From NCBI GenBank assembly GCA_964420085.1, contig CAYQRI010000001.1, positions 31,372-95,371 on the forward strand: a DNA stretch of 64,000 bases, given 5' to 3'. This stretch comes from an uncultured Ruminiclostridium sp. (lineage in GTDB: Bacteria; Bacillota; Clostridia; Oscillospirales; Oscillospiraceae). The notes under the pieces are model-generated. The model did no database searches, had not been told where the DNA came from, and saw only the letters and a program-made list of their open reading frames with translations. This document shows positions 1,236 to 36,431 of this stretch, piece by piece; within the stretch, counting starts at the first letter, position 1; each line of letters opens with the position of its first letter. The position numbers and the translations under genes were made by a program.

Positions 1236-2195
1236 TCAAAAATCACACTTTAAAATTAGTTCCTCCATCGAAGCCGCCGACTGGCTATATTGCTTGATAT
1301 TCTGCCCTGCAAATGCAGTAGCATCCTCTGCGGTAACCGTGTATTCCTGCTTTCCCATCTCGGTTTGATACTCCCATGTGACGTAACTCAGGTTATCAAT
1401 GGCTGCAAGCATTGCATAGGAATTTTGCGCCATGTTCTGCTGCTCCAACTTCACGTTTTCCGCCTGAATAGGCATTTCCAAATGCAGAGTCCAGCCGTAT
1501 GGCTCCCGAGAGGTCTGCAATTCATTGGTATAGGCGCCAAATTGCCCCCCAATGTTGAGGATGGACGCTATTTCTGCATTAGACGACATATCTCCTATAT
1601 AGGGATTCTTTGCCGAAAAAAGCTGAGCGGCTTTGGGACTGATTTCTACGCCATCTTCCCAGATGATCCAATCCCCCACCCTCACTTGTGTAATGGTACT
1701 GTCTGCGCTATACGTCTGACTAAACTCTCCTTGATTAAAAAAAGTCTTCAGTGCAGTATATACTTGAATCTGCACCACGCCGTTTGAATCCGAAACGGTC
1801 ACACGAGAAACACCCAATCCACTGCTGGTAAGTCTGCCTCCTATCGTAAGCGTATCTCCCGAAACCCTAACCTGGCTGGCAACCTCAGAAGCACCCACCG
1901 CAGTTCCCAGATAAAAAAATCGGTAAGAAAAAATCGCCACACACGCGATCATCAACACGACGCCAAACAGAAGGGCTTTGCCCGTCGAACGGCGCCGTAC
2001 CTTTTTGAGATAGTCTACCTCCGTTTGCGGCACACTCGTCGGCTCCGGTTCTCGCATCCGCCGAAGTGCCTCGTTGCAGTCTGTACAAGCTTCCAGATGG
2101 GTCTCTATGGCCTGATTGCTCACATCACTTGTTAATCCGTCTACATAGGATGGAAGCAGGTCTTGCACGACTGCACAGTTTAATTTATTCTCCAT
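1236..2195 (-). CDS. Anti-sigma factor: zf-HC2 zinc finger, TM helix and DUF4825-like extracellular domain
   Basis: C..VQDLLPSYVDG...HLEACTDC (HxxxCxxC); one TM segment; C-terminal LFSAKNPYIGDMS...YTNELQTSREPYGWTL; overlaps the sigma gene by 11 nt. Confidence 0.8.
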   Translation of the reverse strand: MENKLNCAVVQDLLPSYVDGLTSDVSNQAIETHLEACTDCNEALRRMREPEPTSVPQTEVDYLKKVRRRSTGKALLFGVVLMIACVAIFSYRFFYLGTAVGASEVASQVRVSGDTLTIGGRLTSSGLGVSRVTVSDSNGVVQIQVYTALKTFFNQGEFSQTYSADSTITQVRVGDWIIWEDGVEISPKAAQLFSAKNPYIGDMSSNAEIASILNIGGQFGAYTNELQTSREPYGWTLHLEMPIQAENVKLEQQNMAQNSYAMLAAIDNLSYVTWEYQTEMGKQEYTVTAEDATAFAGQNIKQYSQSAASMEELILKCDF

Positions 2196-2667
2196 CTGAT
2201 TTCAGCTCCTTTTTCAATTTTTCCTTCCCACGATAAAATGTAACTCTGGCCCAGTTCTCTCCCTTGGATAGAATCTCGCCAATTTCTCGGAAACTCAAAT
2301 TTCCAAACAAGCGCAGATACATCACCTCCCGCATCGTTTCATTCAAATGATGCAGCTTTCTAAAAAGCTCCAACTGAGAAAGGTTTGTCAGCACCTCTGT
2401 TTCCGGAGAGGCAGAGGATATGCCGCTTGTCTCCCATTCCTCGCAATCGGGGTGTTTGCGACGGTAGCTATAGCATACATTTTTCGCAATGGCACAAAGC
2501 CAAGTAGAAACCTTGCAGCGACCGTCGAAACGTGCAATCCCCTTTACCGCCTGATAAAATGTTTCCTGCGTCAATTCCTCCGATAGATCTGCATCGTGCG
2601 TCAGGGAGAGAAGGTAGCGGTATACCGTCTGTGCGTGCGTGTGGTAGATTTCTTCCATCGAGATCAT
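2185..2667 (-). CDS. ECF-type RNA polymerase sigma factor
   Basis: AEDL-like LSEELTQETFYQAV, STWLCAIAKN and region 4 LSFREIGEIL. Start moved to MISMEEIY (2667), behind an AGGAGG RBS. Confidence 0.9.
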   Translation of the reverse strand: MISMEEIYHTHAQTVYRYLLSLTHDADLSEELTQETFYQAVKGIARFDGRCKVSTWLCAIAKNVCYSYRRKHPDCEEWETSGISSASPETEVLTNLSQLELFRKLHHLNETMREVMYLRLFGNLSFREIGEILSKGENWARVTFYRGKEKLKKELKSDGE

Positions 2668-2749
2668 CCAGCCACCTCCTTTCATTCTTCTTTCTATTGG
2701 TGCTAAAATCACTCCATTCGTTACCGCTCCATCCCTATTTTTTTTATTT

Positions 2750-4297
2750 TTACCATTCTCCCGTCTTTTCGTAAATACAGTTTCCCGCATGGTAGGTTCT
2801 CAGAATCCTTAGCTCCTTCAGCGCCTCCTCTGCCACCGTAAGTGGATTTTTATTTAAGATCACAAAGTCTGCCCTCTTGCCCGGTGCAATACTGCCCTTG
2901 GTGCGTTCTTCCCCGTATTGATAGGCTGCATGGATGGTAACTGCACGGAGGGCCTCAAGCACCGATATGCGTTGATTTCCCCCCAACAAAACGCCTGCCT
3001 TTGTTTTTCTGTTGACCGCACACCAAACGGTGTGAAGCATATCCGGTGCAACAACAGGGGTATCTTGATGGAAGGTAAATCGAATGCCCTCCTCAAGGGC
3101 ACTTTTGGTGGGGCTAATTTGTGAGGCACGCTCGAATCCAAAATTTTCAATGTGTGTATCGCCCCAATAATAGCAATGCGCCACAAAAAATGAGGGAAGG
3201 ATTCCAAGCTTTTTAACCCGCTTCAATTGATCCACGGATAGAAGCTGCGCATGAATCATGACCGGCCGAATGCTTGCAAGACTATGCTGCCGGGCAATTT
3301 TTTCAGCACAGGTCAAAAATTGTTCTGTGGCAGCGTCGCCGTTACAGTGCGCAAGCAGTTGCCGCCCGTCTCTGACTGCCTTTTGAAGGGATGCTAAGAC
3401 TTGCTCGTCCGACAGATACTGGATTCCAAACTCATCGGTCGAACCCACATAAGGCGTTTTCATCCATGCCGTTCTTCCTTGGGGCGAGCCATCCAGAATG
3501 ATTTTATAGCCGCCCAACCGAACATGGTGGACATAGCCATTGGTATTTTCTGGAAAAGTCTCGTAGAATTTGTCTGCCGTAGCAATTTCCGCATAGCCCA
3601 CAACGTCTAAGTTGAGTGCTCCTTTTTCCAGCAGCAAGCGGTAGCTTGGCAGCATTTCAGGAACCATCATCCCCTCTTGAATCGTGGTGATCCCATATGA
3701 CGCATAGTGTGCCATTGCCTTTTGGTATGACTGCAAGAGCTGCTCCGGCTTTGGCATGGGCACTTGTTTGATCGCCGCAATATAGTCACTCTCCTCCAGA
3801 TAGCCATCTTGATCCTTTGACTGCCCCTCCAGTGTGGCAAGTGCCGTAGAATTAAACACGCCAAAATGTCCCGATTGATGCTGTAGCACCACCGCAATCT
3901 CTGGAAACCACGCATCCAGCCCCTGTTTTGTCGGATGCTGTTTCTCAAGGAGTGCGTTGTGATCATAGCCACTGGCGATAATCCACTGACCTGTTTTTAT
4001 CTGATTTGTTTTCGCAAATCGAAGGAGCCTCTCTTTGATTTCCTCCAACGAGGTGGTTCCCTCCAGCGGAACCTGCAAAAGGGAGTTGGCATAAGAGGAA
4101 AGGTGGCTATGTGCATCCAGAAAGGCGGGCAGCATGGTTCTTCCACATAAATCAACTCGTTCAGCCTGTGCCTGATAGGCAAGCATTTCCTGCTCGCTCC
4201 CAACCTTTTTTATGATGCCATTTTCCACTAAGACCGCTTGCGCTTCTCTCTCGTCCTCCATCGTCAAAATTGTACCACCGTAAAATATTGTTTTCAT
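2750..4297 (-). CDS. Amidohydrolase family 3 (YtcJ-like) metallohydrolase
   Basis: PAFLDAHSH, KIILDGS, AHCNGDAA, IHAQ, FHQDTPV and GSIAPGKRADFVIL motifs. Confidence 0.85.
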   Translation of the reverse strand: MKTIFYGGTILTMEDEREAQAVLVENGIIKKVGSEQEMLAYQAQAERVDLCGRTMLPAFLDAHSHLSSYANSLLQVPLEGTTSLEEIKERLLRFAKTNQIKTGQWIIASGYDHNALLEKQHPTKQGLDAWFPEIAVVLQHQSGHFGVFNSTALATLEGQSKDQDGYLEESDYIAAIKQVPMPKPEQLLQSYQKAMAHYASYGITTIQEGMMVPEMLPSYRLLLEKGALNLDVVGYAEIATADKFYETFPENTNGYVHHVRLGGYKIILDGSPQGRTAWMKTPYVGSTDEFGIQYLSDEQVLASLQKAVRDGRQLLAHCNGDAATEQFLTCAEKIARQHSLASIRPVMIHAQLLSVDQLKRVKKLGILPSFFVAHCYYWGDTHIENFGFERASQISPTKSALEEGIRFTFHQDTPVVAPDMLHTVWCAVNRKTKAGVLLGGNQRISVLEALRAVTIHAAYQYGEERTKGSIAPGKRADFVILNKNPLTVAEEALKELRILRTYHAGNCIYEKTGEW

Positions 4298-4506
4298 GCT
4301 TCCAGCACGCCCTTTCCTTTTGTCTGTTATATTTCAACCTTCCTAAGGCTTATGAAAGGATTTGATTGATGCCGCTTTTACAGTTTACCATAATTTTGTT
4401 GCATTTATCCATCCAGAAAAATAAGCAGAGGCACGACCAAAAGGTCATGCCCCTGCCGAAATCATACAATCGCTTATTTGATTTGTGCCATTGGCCTTCC
4501 GCTCTC

Positions 4507-5346
4507 TTATTCAGGATTTCTGTTGTTGATCTCCAGTGAAAAGTCCGTCTTCATTTCCTTGGACGCTTCGTCTTCTCTAAAGACCACTGTAGGCACTGCC
4601 GCTGCGGAAATCTGATCGCAATACATCAGGGTGATAGAATGTGCGAGATCCGATGCATAGGCCAGGGTGATGGAGCCGTCGCCCACGGGGACTTGGTTTA
4701 CAACCTTTAATTCCACCTGATAGAGTGGACCGACAAGGACCGGAAATACCACGTCTGCGGTCACTCTGCCGGTGAAGCCGTCCTCGACGGTAAAGCTACC
4801 GACGCTCGTTCCGTTGATCACCAGTTCCCATTCGACATACGCACCTGGGGCGAGCACATTGGAAACTACGTCAATGTCCAAAACGGCACGGTTGATGACT
4901 TCATTTGCAGCAAATTTCTGGCTGACACTGTCCCCACGGGCAGCAGACCAGAACCAGCCAACCTCGACCCCGTTCAGAAAACCGACCGACGAAATGACGG
5001 TAGATTCCTCAGATGGGAACTCATATCTTGTTGCTTTGCAGCCTTCCGAGATTGCCGCCACATCTTCCAGCTTCATTTGAAGCAGCATCTCCTTCTGAAT
5101 GACGTGCTTCATGGTTTGCTGAACCGACTTGTTGACATTCAACAAATCCTGCATCGTAGGTGCAGGCTCGAGCTTCCTTTGTTCGGGAATCGTACCCAGC
5201 ACATACTGGATTTTTTCTGCCTCGGCATTGATCAAATGGGATAAACCCAATTCTTCAAAGGCGATGGAGGCAAACAACAGATTTTTAGATGCCTCACGGC
5301 TAACCGTAATCGAGGGTGTCACATCGGGTATATTAGGAAAAGACAT
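4507..5346 (-). CDS. Spore-surface fibre-like paralogue A: helical core plus beta-rich C-terminal domain
   Basis: Residues 1-~97 align by eye with the genes at 5448-6233 and 6367-6777, followed by ~145 aa rich in V/G/S/T. GGAGAGG RBS. Family assignment is inferred. Confidence 0.6.
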   Translation of the reverse strand: MSFPNIPDVTPSITVSREASKNLLFASIAFEELGLSHLINAEAEKIQYVLGTIPEQRKLEPAPTMQDLLNVNKSVQQTMKHVIQKEMLLQMKLEDVAAISEGCKATRYEFPSEESTVISSVGFLNGVEVGWFWSAARGDSVSQKFAANEVINRAVLDIDVVSNVLAPGAYVEWELVINGTSVGSFTVEDGFTGRVTADVVFPVLVGPLYQVELKVVNQVPVGDGSITLAYASDLAHSITLMYCDQISAAAVPTVVFREDEASKEMKTDFSLEINNRNPE

Positions 5347-5389: not shown

Positions 5390-5418
5390 CATCATATGCC
5401 GATTTTGGTCAAACCGTG
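5390..5418 (-). promoter_or_regulatory. sigmaK-like promoter for paralogue A
   Basis: Minus strand CACG-N16-CATATGATG, ~45 nt upstream of the start; consensus mACm-N16-CATAnnnT(A). Confidence 0.55.
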
Positions 5419-5447: not shown

Positions 5448-6233
5448 CTATCCTACACATCCACACGAACAGTCGATACTGATCTTAAATTTGTCCTCCG
5501 TGACTGCAACAAAACCGCTGTCATGGTTCAGCAATGGCTCACACGAATGGAGAATCGCCTGGAATCCTGTTCTAAATGCACCGTCCCAAATTGTGATACA
5601 AAAATCCACCCTTCCCGTCATGTTCTGCCCACAGCGATTGGGTCTTACTGCTTCTCCGCTTCCTGTGATTGTCATGCCGGAGAGTTCACCTTGGCAAAAT
5701 GGCTGCACGCAAAGACTGTGCTTGTATGCCTTCATTGTGATTGACGAGTCTGAGTCCTTTGCCGTATAGCAGAGGAAATTGTCGTTTCGCTTGCTGCTTT
5801 GGAAAATACAGAGGGACAGCATCGCCTCTAGGCACGACAAGCCATCACATGAACAGCAGGTACAGCCGCAGGCTCTGCCAACCACACAGCACCCACCCTG
5901 CGGGGGGGGACAGGGTGGGGCAGGCGGTGGAGAGGGCGGCTGAGGGGGAAGCATTTTCTCGACCTTCTCCAGCTTAAATTGTAACAGCATTTGCAGCTTA
6001 ATCATATTTATAATGGTAGAGTTTACGCTCTCATTAACGGATAGCAGATCATCGTCATGACAGCGGCCACAGCCCTGTTTTTTTGTTACATACTTAATTT
6101 TTTCCGATTCGGCGTCCATCAGTTTTGAAAGACTGATCTCCTCCATCGCAATCGAGGTGAGCAGTAAATTGACGGCGTCCTCAAATGAAACGTCAATATC
6201 CGGCGTAATATCCGGGATGTTTGGCATTGACAA
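5448..6233 (-). CDS. Spore-surface fibre-like paralogue B: helical core, Pro linker and Cys-rich domain
   Basis: MSMPNIPDITP...SIAMEEISLSKLMDAESEKIKY...LQMLLQFKLEKV core, PPQPPSPPPAPPCPPP linker, ~21 Cys in 261 aa; AAGGAGAG RBS. Confidence 0.6.
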   Translation of the reverse strand: MSMPNIPDITPDIDVSFEDAVNLLLTSIAMEEISLSKLMDAESEKIKYVTKKQGCGRCHDDDLLSVNESVNSTIINMIKLQMLLQFKLEKVEKMLPPQPPSPPPAPPCPPPQGGCCVVGRACGCTCCSCDGLSCLEAMLSLCIFQSSKRNDNFLCYTAKDSDSSITMKAYKHSLCVQPFCQGELSGMTITGSGEAVRPNRCGQNMTGRVDFCITIWDGAFRTGFQAILHSCEPLLNHDSGFVAVTEDKFKISIDCSCGCVG

Positions 6234-6256: not shown

Positions 6257-6285
6257 CACACCTACATTCCGTAGGTCATATGCTA
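6257..6285 (+). promoter_or_regulatory. sigmaK-like promoter (rightward)
   Basis: CACA(6257-6260)-N16-CATATGCTA(6277-6285), a full match to mACm-N16-CATAnnnTA. Confidence 0.7.
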
Positions 6286-6312
6286 TTTTATGACAGGATC
6301 TATATAGGTGTG
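6284..6312 (-). promoter_or_regulatory. sigmaK-like promoter (leftward)
   Basis: Minus strand CACA(6312-6309)-N16-CATAAAATA(6292-6284), a full consensus match. Confidence 0.7.
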
Positions 6313-6366
6313 ATTTGTCATGCCTTTTTGTTCCTTGTCAAAATTAAACTTTGAAAGGGTTGGCAG

Positions 6367-6777
6367 ATGATGTCTATGCCAAATATTCCGAATGTAGACG
6401 CTGAAATCAGCATCGACAAAGAAAATTCCATGCATCTTCTCTTGGCTTCCATTGCCTTTGAGGAATTGGCACAAGCCCATCTTATCAATGCAGAAGCTGA
6501 AAAAATCCAATATGCTCTCGGCACGCTTGGGGATTCCAAGCCATCCGTTCCCACCACTCTCACTGAACTCTTGGATATAAACCAAAGTGCGTCACAAATG
6601 CTGAAGTATGTCATAAAAAATCAAATGCTGCTATTGTTTAAATTGGAGGACATTTTGGCGCATTCCGATTTAAACATTTATAAAAATACCGCTGTTGTAA
6701 CCGCATTTTTTAGAGAGGAAGCATTATCCGAAAGCGACATTGCCTATTATCACACGAAAGGAGCCGTTTTAGTATGA
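6367..6777 (+). CDS. Spore-surface fibre-like paralogue C: helical core with short tail
   Basis: MSMPNIPNV...SIAFEELAQAHLINAEAEKIQYALGT...LLDINQS...NQMLLLFKLEDI; start may be 6370. Confidence 0.65.
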   Translation: MMSMPNIPNVDAEISIDKENSMHLLLASIAFEELAQAHLINAEAEKIQYALGTLGDSKPSVPTTLTELLDINQSASQMLKYVIKNQMLLLFKLEDILAHSDLNIYKNTAVVTAFFREEALSESDIAYYHTKGAVLV

Positions 6778-8276
6778 TCCTCATTGGTGGCGTGAATATG
6801 GGCGATTTGCCCAACTATTTGTTTTTCTTCTCCAATGGAAGTATCGCCGCAGACTGGATGGATGCAAAGCATGGGTATCTCGGTGACGTAGCGGTAAACG
6901 GTTTGACCGCAAAGTTGCACACCAATGCCGGCATTCCCTATGGCGGCACCATATACACCAATGATACAACGCTTGGCGATTGGCAGGATATTGTGGACGC
7001 AAATCCTGGTCAGGCCTTTTCATCTCTGAATCAGACCGCCCGAATTTCTGGACTGCACGCAGATTTGGTGACCGCCCTCCAGCAAATCAATGCATTGCCT
7101 GTAACCGTTGGATATGAAAGCCGAAGTTCGGGGTCTCTGGATGGACTAAACACCCAAAACGGAATCAATGAGGTATTCGTCATTAATATCACCTCTGGTT
7201 TTGATGTATCGAATCCCATCAATATCACAGGAGATGCCGGGGATGTGTATATCCTGCGCTGGGATGAGGATGCAAACCCAACCAACGGGTATGGGGGGCG
7301 TGTTCGTTTCCGTCAAGGCGGTGCCATTGTCCCACACGGTGGTCTCATCCCGACAAACTTCATCAACGTGGCGGGACAACTGGATTCTGCCGGCGGGGGC
7401 AGCACACCTGCTATGCCCTATCCGCAAGGTCCCAGATACAGCGACGGCTTGGGCACACTGATTGTCGGCGGCAGCGACTGGACCAGCGGCGGCTTCTTCA
7501 CTGGTTATTGGCTGACAACCGGCAAGCCTACCACGCTCGATCCTGAAACTGGTCTTTATTATGGCGTCACATCCTCCTTGGGTAACTGCACCGTTGTGGG
7601 TGGGTGGTATACACTGACCACACAGTTCCTGCTGACTGCACAGTCGGGCGGTGTTCACGTTTCCCCGAATCCGGCGACCTCTCCGCTTCCACAGCTTAGC
7701 CTCAAAAAATTTGTCTCACTCGATGACGGCATAACCTGGATTTCTGCCCCAACGCCTCCCGGTCCCACCATCCCCTCTTATGTTACACCTAAGTTTAAGG
7801 TTTTGGTGCGCAATTCGGGAAACGTTCCGCTTTATGACATCCAGATTGAAGACGATGTATTCGGCCCTATTTCCCTTGTCCCTGATATGATGCCCGATCA
7901 GGCTCTGTCGTTCATTTTTTATGGGGCATGGGTCGAAGGTGCCCACCAAAACACGGCAACCGCCGTTGGAACCTTTGAGGAAGAAACGGTCTTTGCTCAG
8001 GATAGCGCTAACTATCTCGGTGTGAGAGAAACCCCGGCCATTTCACTGAAAAAATATGTGTCTGTGGATCACGGTGCAACATGGCTTGATGCCAACACCC
8101 CGCCAGGACCACTCCTTCCGGAAGGTGTGACCCCGCAATTCAAGTATGTGGTCAAAAACGTGGGCGATGTCGTGCTCTCCAATATCACGGTAACCGATGA
8201 TGTTCTTGGCGAAATCGCAGCACTGGATAACCTTTCACCCGGTGAAACCAAAGCTTGGATCTTATCTGCACTTTAA
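6774..8276 (+). CDS. Gly/Thr/Asn-rich 500-aa protein with ~1.5 C-terminal Ig-like (DUF11/DUF7507-like) repeats
   Basis: ATGA overlap with paralogue C. Repeats LSLKKFVSLDDGITW...FKVLVRNSGNVPLYDIQIEDDVFG and ISLKKYVSVDHGATW...FKYVVKNVGDVVLSNITVTDDVLG. No obvious signal peptide. Confidence 0.6.
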   Translation: MILIGGVNMGDLPNYLFFFSNGSIAADWMDAKHGYLGDVAVNGLTAKLHTNAGIPYGGTIYTNDTTLGDWQDIVDANPGQAFSSLNQTARISGLHADLVTALQQINALPVTVGYESRSSGSLDGLNTQNGINEVFVINITSGFDVSNPINITGDAGDVYILRWDEDANPTNGYGGRVRFRQGGAIVPHGGLIPTNFINVAGQLDSAGGGSTPAMPYPQGPRYSDGLGTLIVGGSDWTSGGFFTGYWLTTGKPTTLDPETGLYYGVTSSLGNCTVVGGWYTLTTQFLLTAQSGGVHVSPNPATSPLPQLSLKKFVSLDDGITWISAPTPPGPTIPSYVTPKFKVLVRNSGNVPLYDIQIEDDVFGPISLVPDMMPDQALSFIFYGAWVEGAHQNTATAVGTFEEETVFAQDSANYLGVRETPAISLKKYVSVDHGATWLDANTPPGPLLPEGVTPQFKYVVKNVGDVVLSNITVTDDVLGEIAALDNLSPGETKAWILSAL

Positions 8277-34156: not shown

Positions 34157-35626
34157 ATGTCCTTTGGAGAAACGCTGCGAGAACTATTAGACAAAACAAA
34201 CATAAAAAGTGTCAATCTGTCCTCCGCTTTAGATTATGATGTTTCTTATATCAGTAAATGGCTCAATGGTGCCAAGCTCCCCTCTAAGAAAAATGCCGCT
34301 TCTGTTTGCCGCCGTATCGCCGCTTACTTATCCAAAAATGCTTCCCCCCGTGCGATAGAAAAGCTCTGTCGTGACTATAACTTGAAAATTGGACCGGGTA
34401 CAGACGGCGTGCAGCAACGTCTGGAGGATGCCCTGACCATCATCTTGAAGGATTCCTTGACCGAAAAGTCAACAGAAGCTCGCACCTCCAATCCTCTGCC
34501 CTTAGGAGAAGGAAATTGCACCATGCTACGCAACGCCGAAGAAATCCTAATTTTGTCCGTGGAGGCCATCGCGCGACATTTTGCACGCACCTCGGATGAA
34601 AACAGCCTCTTGGAGGTCATTTGTATGCTTCCTTTGTCGGGTCCCTTCTCCAGCTACCGCCAATTTTTCCGTCTCCTCGATGAGCGACAGGCAAACCACC
34701 CCGCTCGTATGCGGCTGAACTGGCTCCTGCGGGAAGCGGATTTGCTGGAAAACCCAGTCCTCTATTGCCGCTGCATCAGCACCGTGCTGGAAACACCTGA
34801 TAAAGTCCACGCCGCCTTTTACACCCTAAGTGCAGCTTCCCCCGCCGCCCCCGAAATCATGGTCATCAAAAATTCTCTCCTCACCATCAAGCTCCCCGGA
34901 TTTTTTGACGGCCGTAATTCTGCCATCGCCAGCCTGCACCCCCAACTGATCTGGGACTCCTATCAGCAGGCTGACCGTTATCTTCAGCAAATTGCAACCC
35001 CTGTCCTCCGCTCCCCTGCCGACGACCTCATTCATAACCGACATTTCCGTGCCTTCCTGATGGAAGACACCTTTTTCTGTATTCTCCGTCATATGCAGCT
35101 ATTTCAGCTTCCCAAGGCACTTTGGGATTCCGTGGAAAAGCAATGTGCAGAAGGCGGCGGCTGTCCCTTGATTCATCATATGCGTCATATGTGTACACAC
35201 TCTCAGGTGCATACCATATTATATAAATCTGCCCTCATCAGCTATATATTCGAAGGGGATATCCACTTATTTAATCTCCCCATCTCCCTCTCCTCTGCCG
35301 AACGCCGACATCACCTACTTTATCTGGCAGAGCAGCTGGAGGATAACCCCGCATTTTCTCTGCTGGTATTGGAGGACGAGAATCCATTCCTGCCCGCCGA
35401 TGAATTATTTTGCTCTCTTTTCTTTTCGTCGGATAATCTCTTTACCCTATGCATCACTGAGGATGGCTCGGTACGCAGCAACAGCTTTTCCTCTTCGCTT
35501 TTAAATCAAGCCTTCTGTACAACCTTTCAGAATATCCAAAAGGATGGACAACGCTTCTTTATGGAACGCTCTGCGCTGGTTTCATTGCTTCGCCGTGGCG
35601 CCGAAGCGGTCACCGACGCCTCTTAA
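34157..35626 (+). CDS. XRE-type HTH protein with a large uncharacterised C-terminal region
   Basis: MSFGETLRELL...LSSALDYDVSYISKWLNGAKLP HTH; the remaining ~400 aa are unrecognised. Confidence 0.7.
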   Translation: MSFGETLRELLDKTNIKSVNLSSALDYDVSYISKWLNGAKLPSKKNAASVCRRIAAYLSKNASPRAIEKLCRDYNLKIGPGTDGVQQRLEDALTIILKDSLTEKSTEARTSNPLPLGEGNCTMLRNAEEILILSVEAIARHFARTSDENSLLEVICMLPLSGPFSSYRQFFRLLDERQANHPARMRLNWLLREADLLENPVLYCRCISTVLETPDKVHAAFYTLSAASPAAPEIMVIKNSLLTIKLPGFFDGRNSAIASLHPQLIWDSYQQADRYLQQIATPVLRSPADDLIHNRHFRAFLMEDTFFCILRHMQLFQLPKALWDSVEKQCAEGGGCPLIHHMRHMCTHSQVHTILYKSALISYIFEGDIHLFNLPISLSSAERRHHLLYLAEQLEDNPAFSLLVLEDENPFLPADELFCSLFFSSDNLFTLCITEDGSVRSNSFSSSLLNQAFCTTFQNIQKDGQRFFMERSALVSLLRRGAEAVTDAS

Positions 35627-35750
35627 CCGCTCTCTGTATATCTTTCCTTTTATGAGGTATCCTATTCCTAAGAAATCACGGCTGCCATCGCCTTTTGGTG
35701 TACATGAATGCGAGCCGCGGTTTGCTGATACCAAAAAAGGAGGCGCTGCC

Positions 35751-36431
35751 ATGATTATTGCGGTCGTCCGTACCATCATTCTCTATCTGCTCATTATGAT
35801 TGGGATACGTCTGATGGGTAAGCGGCAAATCGGGCAGCTGGAACCCTCTGAGCTGGTGCTCTCTCTGCTCATTGCGGATCTGGCTGCCGTCCCCATGCAA
35901 GATTTTAGAATTCCACTTCTCATGGGTGTGATTCCGATTTTGACGCTGCTCTGTCTCTCCACCATTCTCTCCATCCTCACGGTGAAAAGCATTCGCTTTC
36001 GGGCACTCCTGTGCAGCCGTCCCAGCGTCATCATCCAAGACGGGGCAATTTTACAGAGTGAAATGATAAAAAACCGCTTCACTGTGGATGAACTGATGGA
36101 GGAGCTGCGTATGGCAGGGGTTACGGATGTATCCTCTGTCAAATATGCTGTTTTGGAAACCACCGGTCGCATCTCTGTTTTGCAGCGGGCAGAGGAGCGC
36201 CCCCCCTCTGCAAAGGATACAGGCATTTCTGTGCCTGAAAACGGCTTGCCTGTGATTTTGATCAGTGACGGTCGCCTTCTTTCCCAAAATCTTGAAACAA
36301 GGAACCTCACCCTAGACTGGCTGCAAAAAAAATTGAACCAGTACGGCCTACAAGACGCCTCCCAAGTATTTTTGATGACAGTAGACGAAGGCAACCATGT
36401 ATACCTCTCTAAAATGGAGGAAAATCCATGA
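35751..36431 (+). CDS. DUF421 (YetF-like) membrane protein
   Basis: RLMGKRQIGQL, ELMEELRMAG, AVLETTGRISV, LISDGRLL; AAGGAGG RBS before 35751. Confidence 0.9.
   Translation: MIIAVVRTIILYLLIMIGIRLMGKRQIGQLEPSELVLSLLIADLAAVPMQDFRIPLLMGVIPILTLLCLSTILSILTVKSIRFRALLCSRPSVIIQDGAILQSEMIKNRFTVDELMEELRMAGVTDVSSVKYAVLETTGRISVLQRAEERPPSAKDTGISVPENGLPVILISDGRLLSQNLETRNLTLDWLQKKLNQYGLQDASQVFLMTVDEGNHVYLSKMEENP

Follow-up and report, generated by a model that had tools for sequence, protein, structure and literature searches.

The stretch of DNA analysed here, referred to as the window in the following, has a length of 64 kb and harbors two divergently oriented gene groups that are separated by an intergenic region of 134 bp (Table 1). 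The TyrRS of the window is 88% identical to that of Evtepia, and the host is a relative of Evtepia (Clostridia, Eubacteriales). The sequence is present in gut metagenomes, and a search for runs holding it returned gut-metagenome DNA runs only and no RNA runs. No difference or joint was detected in the three independent metagenome runs that carry this region, which rules out an assembly chimera or artefact. Neither sigK nor core sporulation genes were seen within the 64-kb window; the A-ENA genes described below and a SpoIID gene beside one orthologous locus (L130) suggest that the host sporulates. Farther to the left, a gene for an ECF-type sigma factor (2185-2790, minus strand) adjoins one for a zf-HC2/DUF4825 anti-sigma-like protein (1236-2195, minus strand), and the sigma factor ORF as listed overlaps the 3' end of an amidohydrolase gene (2750-4297) by about 40 nt.

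Table 1. Coordinates, strands and underlying evidence of the genes and of the putative regulatory features at the divergent A-ENA locus (nt positions of the window).
Feature	Position	Strand	Basis
Candidate bidirectional promoter core, pseudo-palindromic, mACm-N16-CATAnnnTAnnnTATG-N16-kGTk	6257..6312	both	sequence and conserved register
Rightward promoter, -35, CACA (= mACm)	6257..6260	+	direct reading
Rightward promoter, spacer CCTACATTCCGTAGGT, 16 nt	6261-6276	+	direct reading
Rightward promoter, -10, CATATGCTA	6277..6285	+	direct reading
Leftward promoter, -35, CACA	6309..6312 (read 6312-6309)	-	direct reading
Leftward promoter, spacer, 16 nt	6308-6293	-	direct reading
Leftward promoter, -10, CATAAAATA	6284..6292 (read 6292-6284)	-	direct reading
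Leftward gene 1, 261-aa A-ENA fusion, TTG start at 6233	5448..6233	-	ORF and 9IHH match
RBS of leftward gene 1, AAGGAGAG	6247-6240	-	sequence
Third, near-consensus sigma-K-like promoter upstream of leftward gene 2, CACG-N16-CATATGATG	5390..5418	-	motif; conserved in L077/L078
Leftward gene 2, 279-aa A-ENA fusion, beta-rich C-terminal domain	4507..5346	-	ORF and 9IHH match
Terminator-like hairpin ending the leftward arm, 15 pairs and T run	4424..4457	-	hairpin prediction
Rightward gene 1, 135-aa A-ENA subunit (136 aa from ATG 6367), second ATG 6370	6370..6777	+	ORF, PF26595, 9IHH
Rightward gene 2, 500 aa, DUF7507/CLIPPER_2 domain	6774..8276	+	ORF and domain match
Predicted 5' structure of the rightward mRNA: outer helix 6292-6298/6332-6339, inner hairpin 6306-6313/6318-6325	6292..6339	+	folding prediction
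Predicted 5' hairpin of the leftward mRNA, ACCUAC-GGAAU-GUAGGU	6260..6276	-	folding prediction

The flanking genes encode subunits of the A-ENA family (alpha endospore appendage, PF26595). The three small proteins all match chain A of the PDB entry 9IHH (E = 2e-15 for the 135-aa, 1e-15 for the 261-aa and 2e-17 for the 279-aa protein), which represents 'Ex vivo spore-silk A-ENA fibers', and PF26595 is precomputed for the 135-aa protein of the window as well as for the L077 orthologs of both leftward proteins. A scan with Pfam and NCBIfam assigned no family to the three small proteins, the Pfam set scanned being one without the PF26595 model. The AF2 model of the 135-aa protein (pLDDT 84.8) exhibits an alpha-hairpin of two long helices (residues 17-50 and 64-99) and a C-terminal beta-hairpin, and its top match in Foldseek, which is also the sole significant one in the PDB, is 9ihh_A (prob 1.0, TM 0.77 on the target). 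The first description of A-ENA fibers ('sporesilk'), published in 2026, concerns Bacillus thuringiensis serovar israelensis (Bti), where stacked alpha-hairpins are locked by intermolecular isopeptide bonds; their N-terminal latch docks along the fiber through M3, P4, I6 and P7 (PMC13111695). Both divergent proteins begin with MSMPNIP (from the TTG at 6233 and the ATG at 6370), which matches the latch residues. Among the isopeptide residues checked (E28/E29, E39, E41, K42, Q44, N64, K76, K77, E78, Q82, K84 and E86), the K42-N64 and K84-E29 sets are kept in all three proteins according to the 9IHH alignments; K77/Q82 are missing in the 135-aa, Q44/K77 in the 261-aa and K76 in the 279-aa protein. 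These different gaps in each paralog may reflect a mixed fiber or specialised positions within the fiber.

The 261-aa protein is composed of an A-ENA domain, a Pro-rich linker and a Cys-rich C-terminal domain. Its linker (PPQPPSPPPAPPCPPPQGG) is encoded by a G-rich run on the plus strand (region 5870-5940), and the Cys-rich domain, which has no family match and is kept in the orthologs (L010: PPKPPCPPCPPCPPFSPCPPCP), is absent from the passenger types listed in the A-ENA paper (PMC13111695). In the 500-aa protein of the rightward arm a conserved N-terminal region of about 300 aa without family match is followed by DUF7507/CLIPPER_2 repeats. Orthologs of this protein (384-808 aa; one of 1392 aa, cut by a contig end) follow the 135-aa-type gene in every related locus, and most of them have a higher number of repeats and a length of 726-808 aa. 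The 500-aa protein may serve as a docking partner for the beta-hairpin tail of the A-ENA protein encoded before it. Most relatives harbor two A-ENA genes at the beginning of the rightward operon, of which the short type encodes 101-105 aa and the long type, with the beta tail, 133-135 aa, as exemplified by L077 (5636-5953 and 6001-6408); the window and L080 have a single A-ENA gene at this place. Residues 1-93 of the 135-aa protein are nearer to the short type (68-73%) than to the long type (56-60%), residues 94-135 represent the long-type tail (31/42), and the gene looks like a fusion that arose by recombination between tandem paralogs. Elsewhere in the family, the loci L003, L005, L006 and L007 (12.4 kb each) share an A-ENA stretch of about 12 kb that is nearly 100% identical between some named assemblies, namely those of Bacillus yapensis, Robertmurraya massiliosenegalensis and Ureibacillus massiliensis, and over about 7 kb that of Bacillus sp. 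PS06, which points to very recent horizontal transfer or contamination.

The intergenic region of the window contains a near-palindrome of 56 bp (6257-6312), which reads CACA-N16-CATATGCTA on the plus strand and CACA-N16-CATAAAATA on the minus strand. The initial annotation had described it as a pair of sigma-K-like promoters on opposite strands, and re-reading of the letters reproduced the coordinates, the 16-nt spacers, the CACACCTA at the beginning of both arms, the GTCATA within each of them and the TA at 6284-6285, which is common to both -10 boxes (overlap of 2 bp). The palindrome within the rightward spacer was likewise retrieved (CCTAC at 6261-6265, GTAGG at 6271-6275). The distance from the end of the -10 box to the start codon amounts to 81-84 nt on the plus and 50 nt on the minus side, and an RBS is present on each side. 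Exact matches of CACACCTA-N12-CATANNNTA within the window are confined to these two promoter sites, with 0.18 matches expected per window even if up to two mismatches are allowed. The pattern AC-N17-CATANNNTA has two matches versus 0.65 expected (64 kb on both strands, i.e. 128 kb); they are the same two promoter sites, located in one 134-bp divergent intergenic region and each aimed at its gene. A further exact match, of AC-N16-CATANNNTA, lies at 35197-35223 (plus strand) inside the ORF 34157-35626 and about 320 nt upstream of a gene (35544-36431) of the DUF421/YetF family, which has been linked to spores; its count is within the chance expectation for the window.

Orthologous divergent loci were recovered by exact-protein look-ups from independent assemblies (L077/L078, L080-82, L130/131, L132/133, L134/135 and the more distant L139), with protein identities to the window of 51-64%. 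A scan of genome contigs for close relatives reached identities of at most 53%, and one of the JGI metagenomes at most 55%. The initial annotation had tied its reading to conservation in such loci, and this expectation was borne out, since mACm-N16-CATAnnnTAnnnTATG-N16-kGTk is found at the same intergenic place in seven further distinct loci. Across the eight sequences only 2 of the 18 positions that are specified by the sigma-K consensus vary, compared with 30 of the 38 other positions (Fisher p = 1.8e-6). Both exceptions concern the 'm' of mACm, namely an A (still m) at the first position in L139 and an A-to-G exchange at 6260 in L134. Neither AC nor CATA nor TA varies on either strand in any of the eight loci, and the leftward -35 CACA is likewise invariant; the NNN of the -10 boxes varies (ATG, AAG, ATT, ACG, GTA). 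The spacer sequences of L139 show no relationship to those of the window, but their length and all core bases have been retained. This is the pattern that two functional promoters of the sigma-K class would be expected to leave. Besides the element, the conserved blocks of the 134-bp region are only the ribosome-binding sites and the leader hairpins, and because the region is so short and has no other conserved block the promoter of each gene must lie within it. Its conservation in related bacteria indicates that the element is very probably real, and a chance origin is ruled out by the match counts versus expectation together with the conservation statistics.

The divergent gene order is also present in L136 and L138 from related AT-rich lineages, where the promoter element was not found. 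The A-ENA operons of L008 (3085-3140) and L009 (330-370), which have no divergent partner, share another upstream block, GTTACGTTCCTTCC ... GTATGTCA(T/A)ATA, that does not fit the sigma-K spacing. L010 (4740-4800), from a metagenome-assembled genome of the Oscillospiraceae, lacks the promoter core together with the first few codons of the leftward gene, and approximately codon 5 of this gene is joined straight to the right arm (TAGGTGTGAAATGTCATACC). Either the deletion is genuine or the assembly went wrong at the palindrome.

Sigma-K is the late mother-cell sigma factor of sporulation. Its consensus in B. subtilis and C. difficile consists of AC, a distance of 16-17 nt and CATAnnnTA (PMC3789822), and the element corresponds to these canonical promoters on both strands in its -35 (mACm), its 16-nt spacing and its -10 (CATAnnnTA) as well as in orientation and distance to the gene. 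It differs from them in the extra invariant CACACC and GTCATA, and in an Evtepia-like host for which the dependence on sigma-K is a prediction. Neither the invariant GT that precedes each CATA nor the extension CACACC belongs to the sigma-K consensus, and because these bases are conserved beyond it a further factor or an RNA structure may take part; a comparison by eye with the consensus sequences of GerE and SpoIIID provided partial matches only. The founding member of the family offers a close parallel: the a-ena gene of Bti has a predicted SigK site (CACCTTTGGAATAGCTGTTACATATAATA) of the form CAC-N17-CATATAATA, comparable to CACA-N16-CATATGCTA in the window, and its reporter is on in sporulating cells only; no sigma motif was found for a-ena1 of Bti (PMC13111695). 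However, the a-ena promoter of Bti is unidirectional, located on a toxin plasmid and serves a single-domain subunit, whereas the window represents a chromosome of a gut Clostridium with two interlocked promoters, fusion subunits and a CLIPPER_2 protein. The sigma-K-like reading of the two motifs thus agrees both with the invariance of AC, CATA and TA against varying spacers and NNN, and with the genes served, which encode spore-appendage subunits; for the founding member of their family a SigK site has been predicted and expression is confined to sporulation. We infer from the sequence that the two promoters would depend on sigma-K.

For the prediction of transcription starts, A4 and T8 of CATAnnnTA were aligned with -11A and -7T of the sigma-70 -10 element, a correspondence deduced from the common mechanism of -10 recognition. 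The starts are accordingly predicted near 6291 (plus strand) and 6278 (minus strand), about 13 bp apart, and the 5' ends of the two transcripts would overlap for about 14 nt. Bidirectional promoters are pseudo-symmetric sequences that bind polymerase in either orientation, the binding of one excluding the other (PMC12825309, PMC10268837). The sigma-70 promoters of this kind described by Warman and Grainger resemble the element in being short and pseudo-symmetric with these binding properties, which are predicted for the element, and in having -35 elements on both flanks and a position between divergent genes with the possibility of co-regulation; their divergent starts are 7-25 bp apart, and about 13 bp is predicted here from the sequence. 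In their commonest form these sigma-70 promoters have starts at a distance of 18 bp with reciprocally base-paired -7T and -11A, whereas the window shows full consensus on both sides instead of a weak 'accidental' partner, and sigma-K-type CATAnnnTA -10 boxes that abut instead of coinciding and have only the -7T/-6A pair in common. In particular, -11A of the plus-strand promoter lies at 6280 and -7T of the minus-strand promoter at 6285, and the reciprocal -7T/-11A pairing of the 18-bp class is absent at 6257-6312. The element is best read as a bidirectional promoter as understood by Warman and Grainger, although its register is not the same. A literature search for SigK together with bidirectional promoters found nothing relevant.

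An origin of the divergent arrangement by inverted duplication of a promoter-gene unit, as proposed in the initial annotation, is not supported. Such an event would have left the promoters back to back, but here they are interlocked, with each -35 inside the predicted transcribed leader of the other promoter. Within the A-ENA domain the identity between the two divergent proteins is only 41%, and the common start MSMPNIP, which had been taken as a sign of duplication, is real but corresponds to the family-wide N-terminal latch that is also found in homologs across the Bacillota (Bacillus, Paenibacillus, Oscillospiraceae and others). The two arms of the element are identical at 18/29 positions in the window and at 15/29 in L139, with the identities concentrated on consensus positions. 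In L139 the arms have only the consensus positions in common, as expected from common constraint and not from common descent. The paralogs of the two gene arms nevertheless share an ancient origin.

Based on the motifs, the conservation pattern, the gene family and the fold, all of them shown here, we regard 6257-6312 as probably a bidirectional promoter of the sigma-K type by which both arms of a spore-fiber cluster would be co-regulated. In this reading each strand carries one promoter, made up of CACA as the -35, a spacer of 16 nt and CATAnnnTA as the -10; the -10 boxes of the two would abut and use one TA in common, and polymerase in both orientations would melt the same approximately 13 bp. 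The leftward promoter would transcribe the genes for the 261-aa and then the 279-aa A-ENA fusion, the latter of which is also preceded by a separate, weaker sigma-K-like promoter; transcription from the rightward promoter would cover the genes for the 135-aa A-ENA subunit and the 500-aa DUF7507/CLIPPER_2 protein, which would be translationally coupled. The function is likely a tight co-regulation of the parts of an endospore-appendage (sporesilk-like) fiber, with the same sigma factor, compartment and time, from a compact region.

Beyond co-regulation, the two promoters might be strong and compete sterically, so that the competition would set the ratio between the leftward (decorating/fusion) and the rightward (shaft/adaptor) products, a proposal already made in the initial annotation that we consider unlikely. 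Mutual exclusion as such is physically expected because the polymerase footprints overlap: with footprints from about -55 to +20 in both orientations, the geometry implies an overlap across the whole core, which would sterically prevent two polymerases from occupying one copy of the DNA. When one side of a bidirectional promoter is strengthened in E. coli, the other is repressed via polymerase competition, and the full consensus on both sides of the element may confer such strength. Competition counts there only when transcription is strong, however, and none was detected at basal activity in five natural E. coli bidirectional promoters (PMC12825309). The two -10 and -35 elements of the window are furthermore nearly equal in quality without an obvious bias, and there are simpler conserved levers, i.e. 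the TTG start, the internal third promoter, the leader hairpins and the translational coupling in the rightward arm. The broader proposition, according to which a dedicated sigma-K bidirectional promoter with abutting -10 boxes (CATAnnnTAnnnTATG) is kept in register across gut Clostridia and polymerase competition partitions late mother-cell transcription, thereby fixing the stoichiometry of shaft/adaptor and decorating subunits or lowering cell-to-cell variation, appears likewise unlikely.

The TTG start of the first leftward gene is kept in every ortholog as TTG-TC(A/G)-ATG, and the change in codon 2 is synonymous; this codon is therefore translated. The start of the second rightward gene overlaps the stop of the first one by 4 nt, an arrangement by which the two would be translationally coupled. 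Taken together with the third promoter, the TTG start and the coupling make promoter competition unnecessary for explaining different subunit amounts, although it is compatible with them. The inner hairpin of the rightward leader, built partly from the -35 of the leftward promoter, is predicted in five of the six close orthologs with one-sided changes only, and RNAalifold detected no pair in this leader with changes on both sides; the hairpin is a modest suggestion from folding. A terminator reading of 6306-6325 was rejected, as the U run is present in the window only and missing from the orthologs. The hairpin predicted for the leftward leader is formed by the CCTAC/GTAGG palindrome of the rightward spacer and is kept in L077-type loci and not in L080. 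In the close clade CACACCTACAT is a further sequence common to the two arms, and in L080 both read CACACCC; this extra similarity of the arms may reflect the RNA structure of the leaders.

A reading of the promoters by another sigma factor, either the housekeeping sigma-A or the earlier mother-cell sigma-E with its CATA-type -10, is very unlikely. A scan for sigma-70-type promoters did find TTCACA-18-TATGCT and ATCACA-18-TAAAAT with 9/12 each, but this reading requires 18-nt spacers, leaves the invariant C and A of CATA and the final A unexplained, and ignores the exact coincidence of the three variable columns with the NNN of CATAnnnTA. The case for sigma-E is that its CATA-type -10 box is almost the same as that of sigma-K; the two factors are discriminated at the -35, with AC for sigma-K and ATA for sigma-E, and C. 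difficile resembles B. subtilis in this respect (PMC3789822). The element has an invariant AC, and among A-ENA family genes AC-N16/17-CATAnnnTA is found upstream of 14/123 genes versus 1.5 in shuffles when the orthologous set is left out (31/186 versus 2.1 when the orthologous loci are included), whereas the sigma-E-type ATA motif is not enriched upstream of A-ENA family genes (5 versus 5.2 in shuffles). Fibers on the exterior of the spore are moreover late products, as in Bti.

It is hardly plausible that the palindrome serves mainly as the operator of a dimeric regulator, with the sigma-K resemblance being secondary: the inner repeat GTCATA-N8-TATGAC (6-N8-6) is invariant in the close clade, including a GT before CATA that sigma-K does not need, and the 12-nt outer arms (TCACACCTACAT/ATGTAGGTGTGA) are 92% complementary and changed together from T to C in L080, but these arms are 34 bp apart and hence too far for one dimer, L139 has lost them and the left GT while keeping every sigma-K position and spacing, the leader hairpins of the opposite transcripts can account for the extra conservation, and a regulator could also sit atop the promoters.

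The proposed sigma-K-type bidirectional promoter at 6257-6312 would be a variant of a sigma-K promoter, a bidirectional promoter and an A-ENA cluster, each of which was already known. Descriptions of bidirectional promoters concern the housekeeping sigma-70, and such promoters were mostly viewed as a by-product of -10 symmetry. If our interpretation is true, a conserved full-consensus pair for a developmental sigma factor would mean that this architecture is selectable and can be used to co-regulate the parts of one structure. The element is small and well defined, so that the idea of competition is directly testable with reporters. It would also provide a regulatory handle on the A-ENA 'sporesilk' clusters of gut Clostridia and a first look at how clusters of this type are regulated in these bacteria; descriptions of the fibers date from 2026 and are limited to Bacillus.
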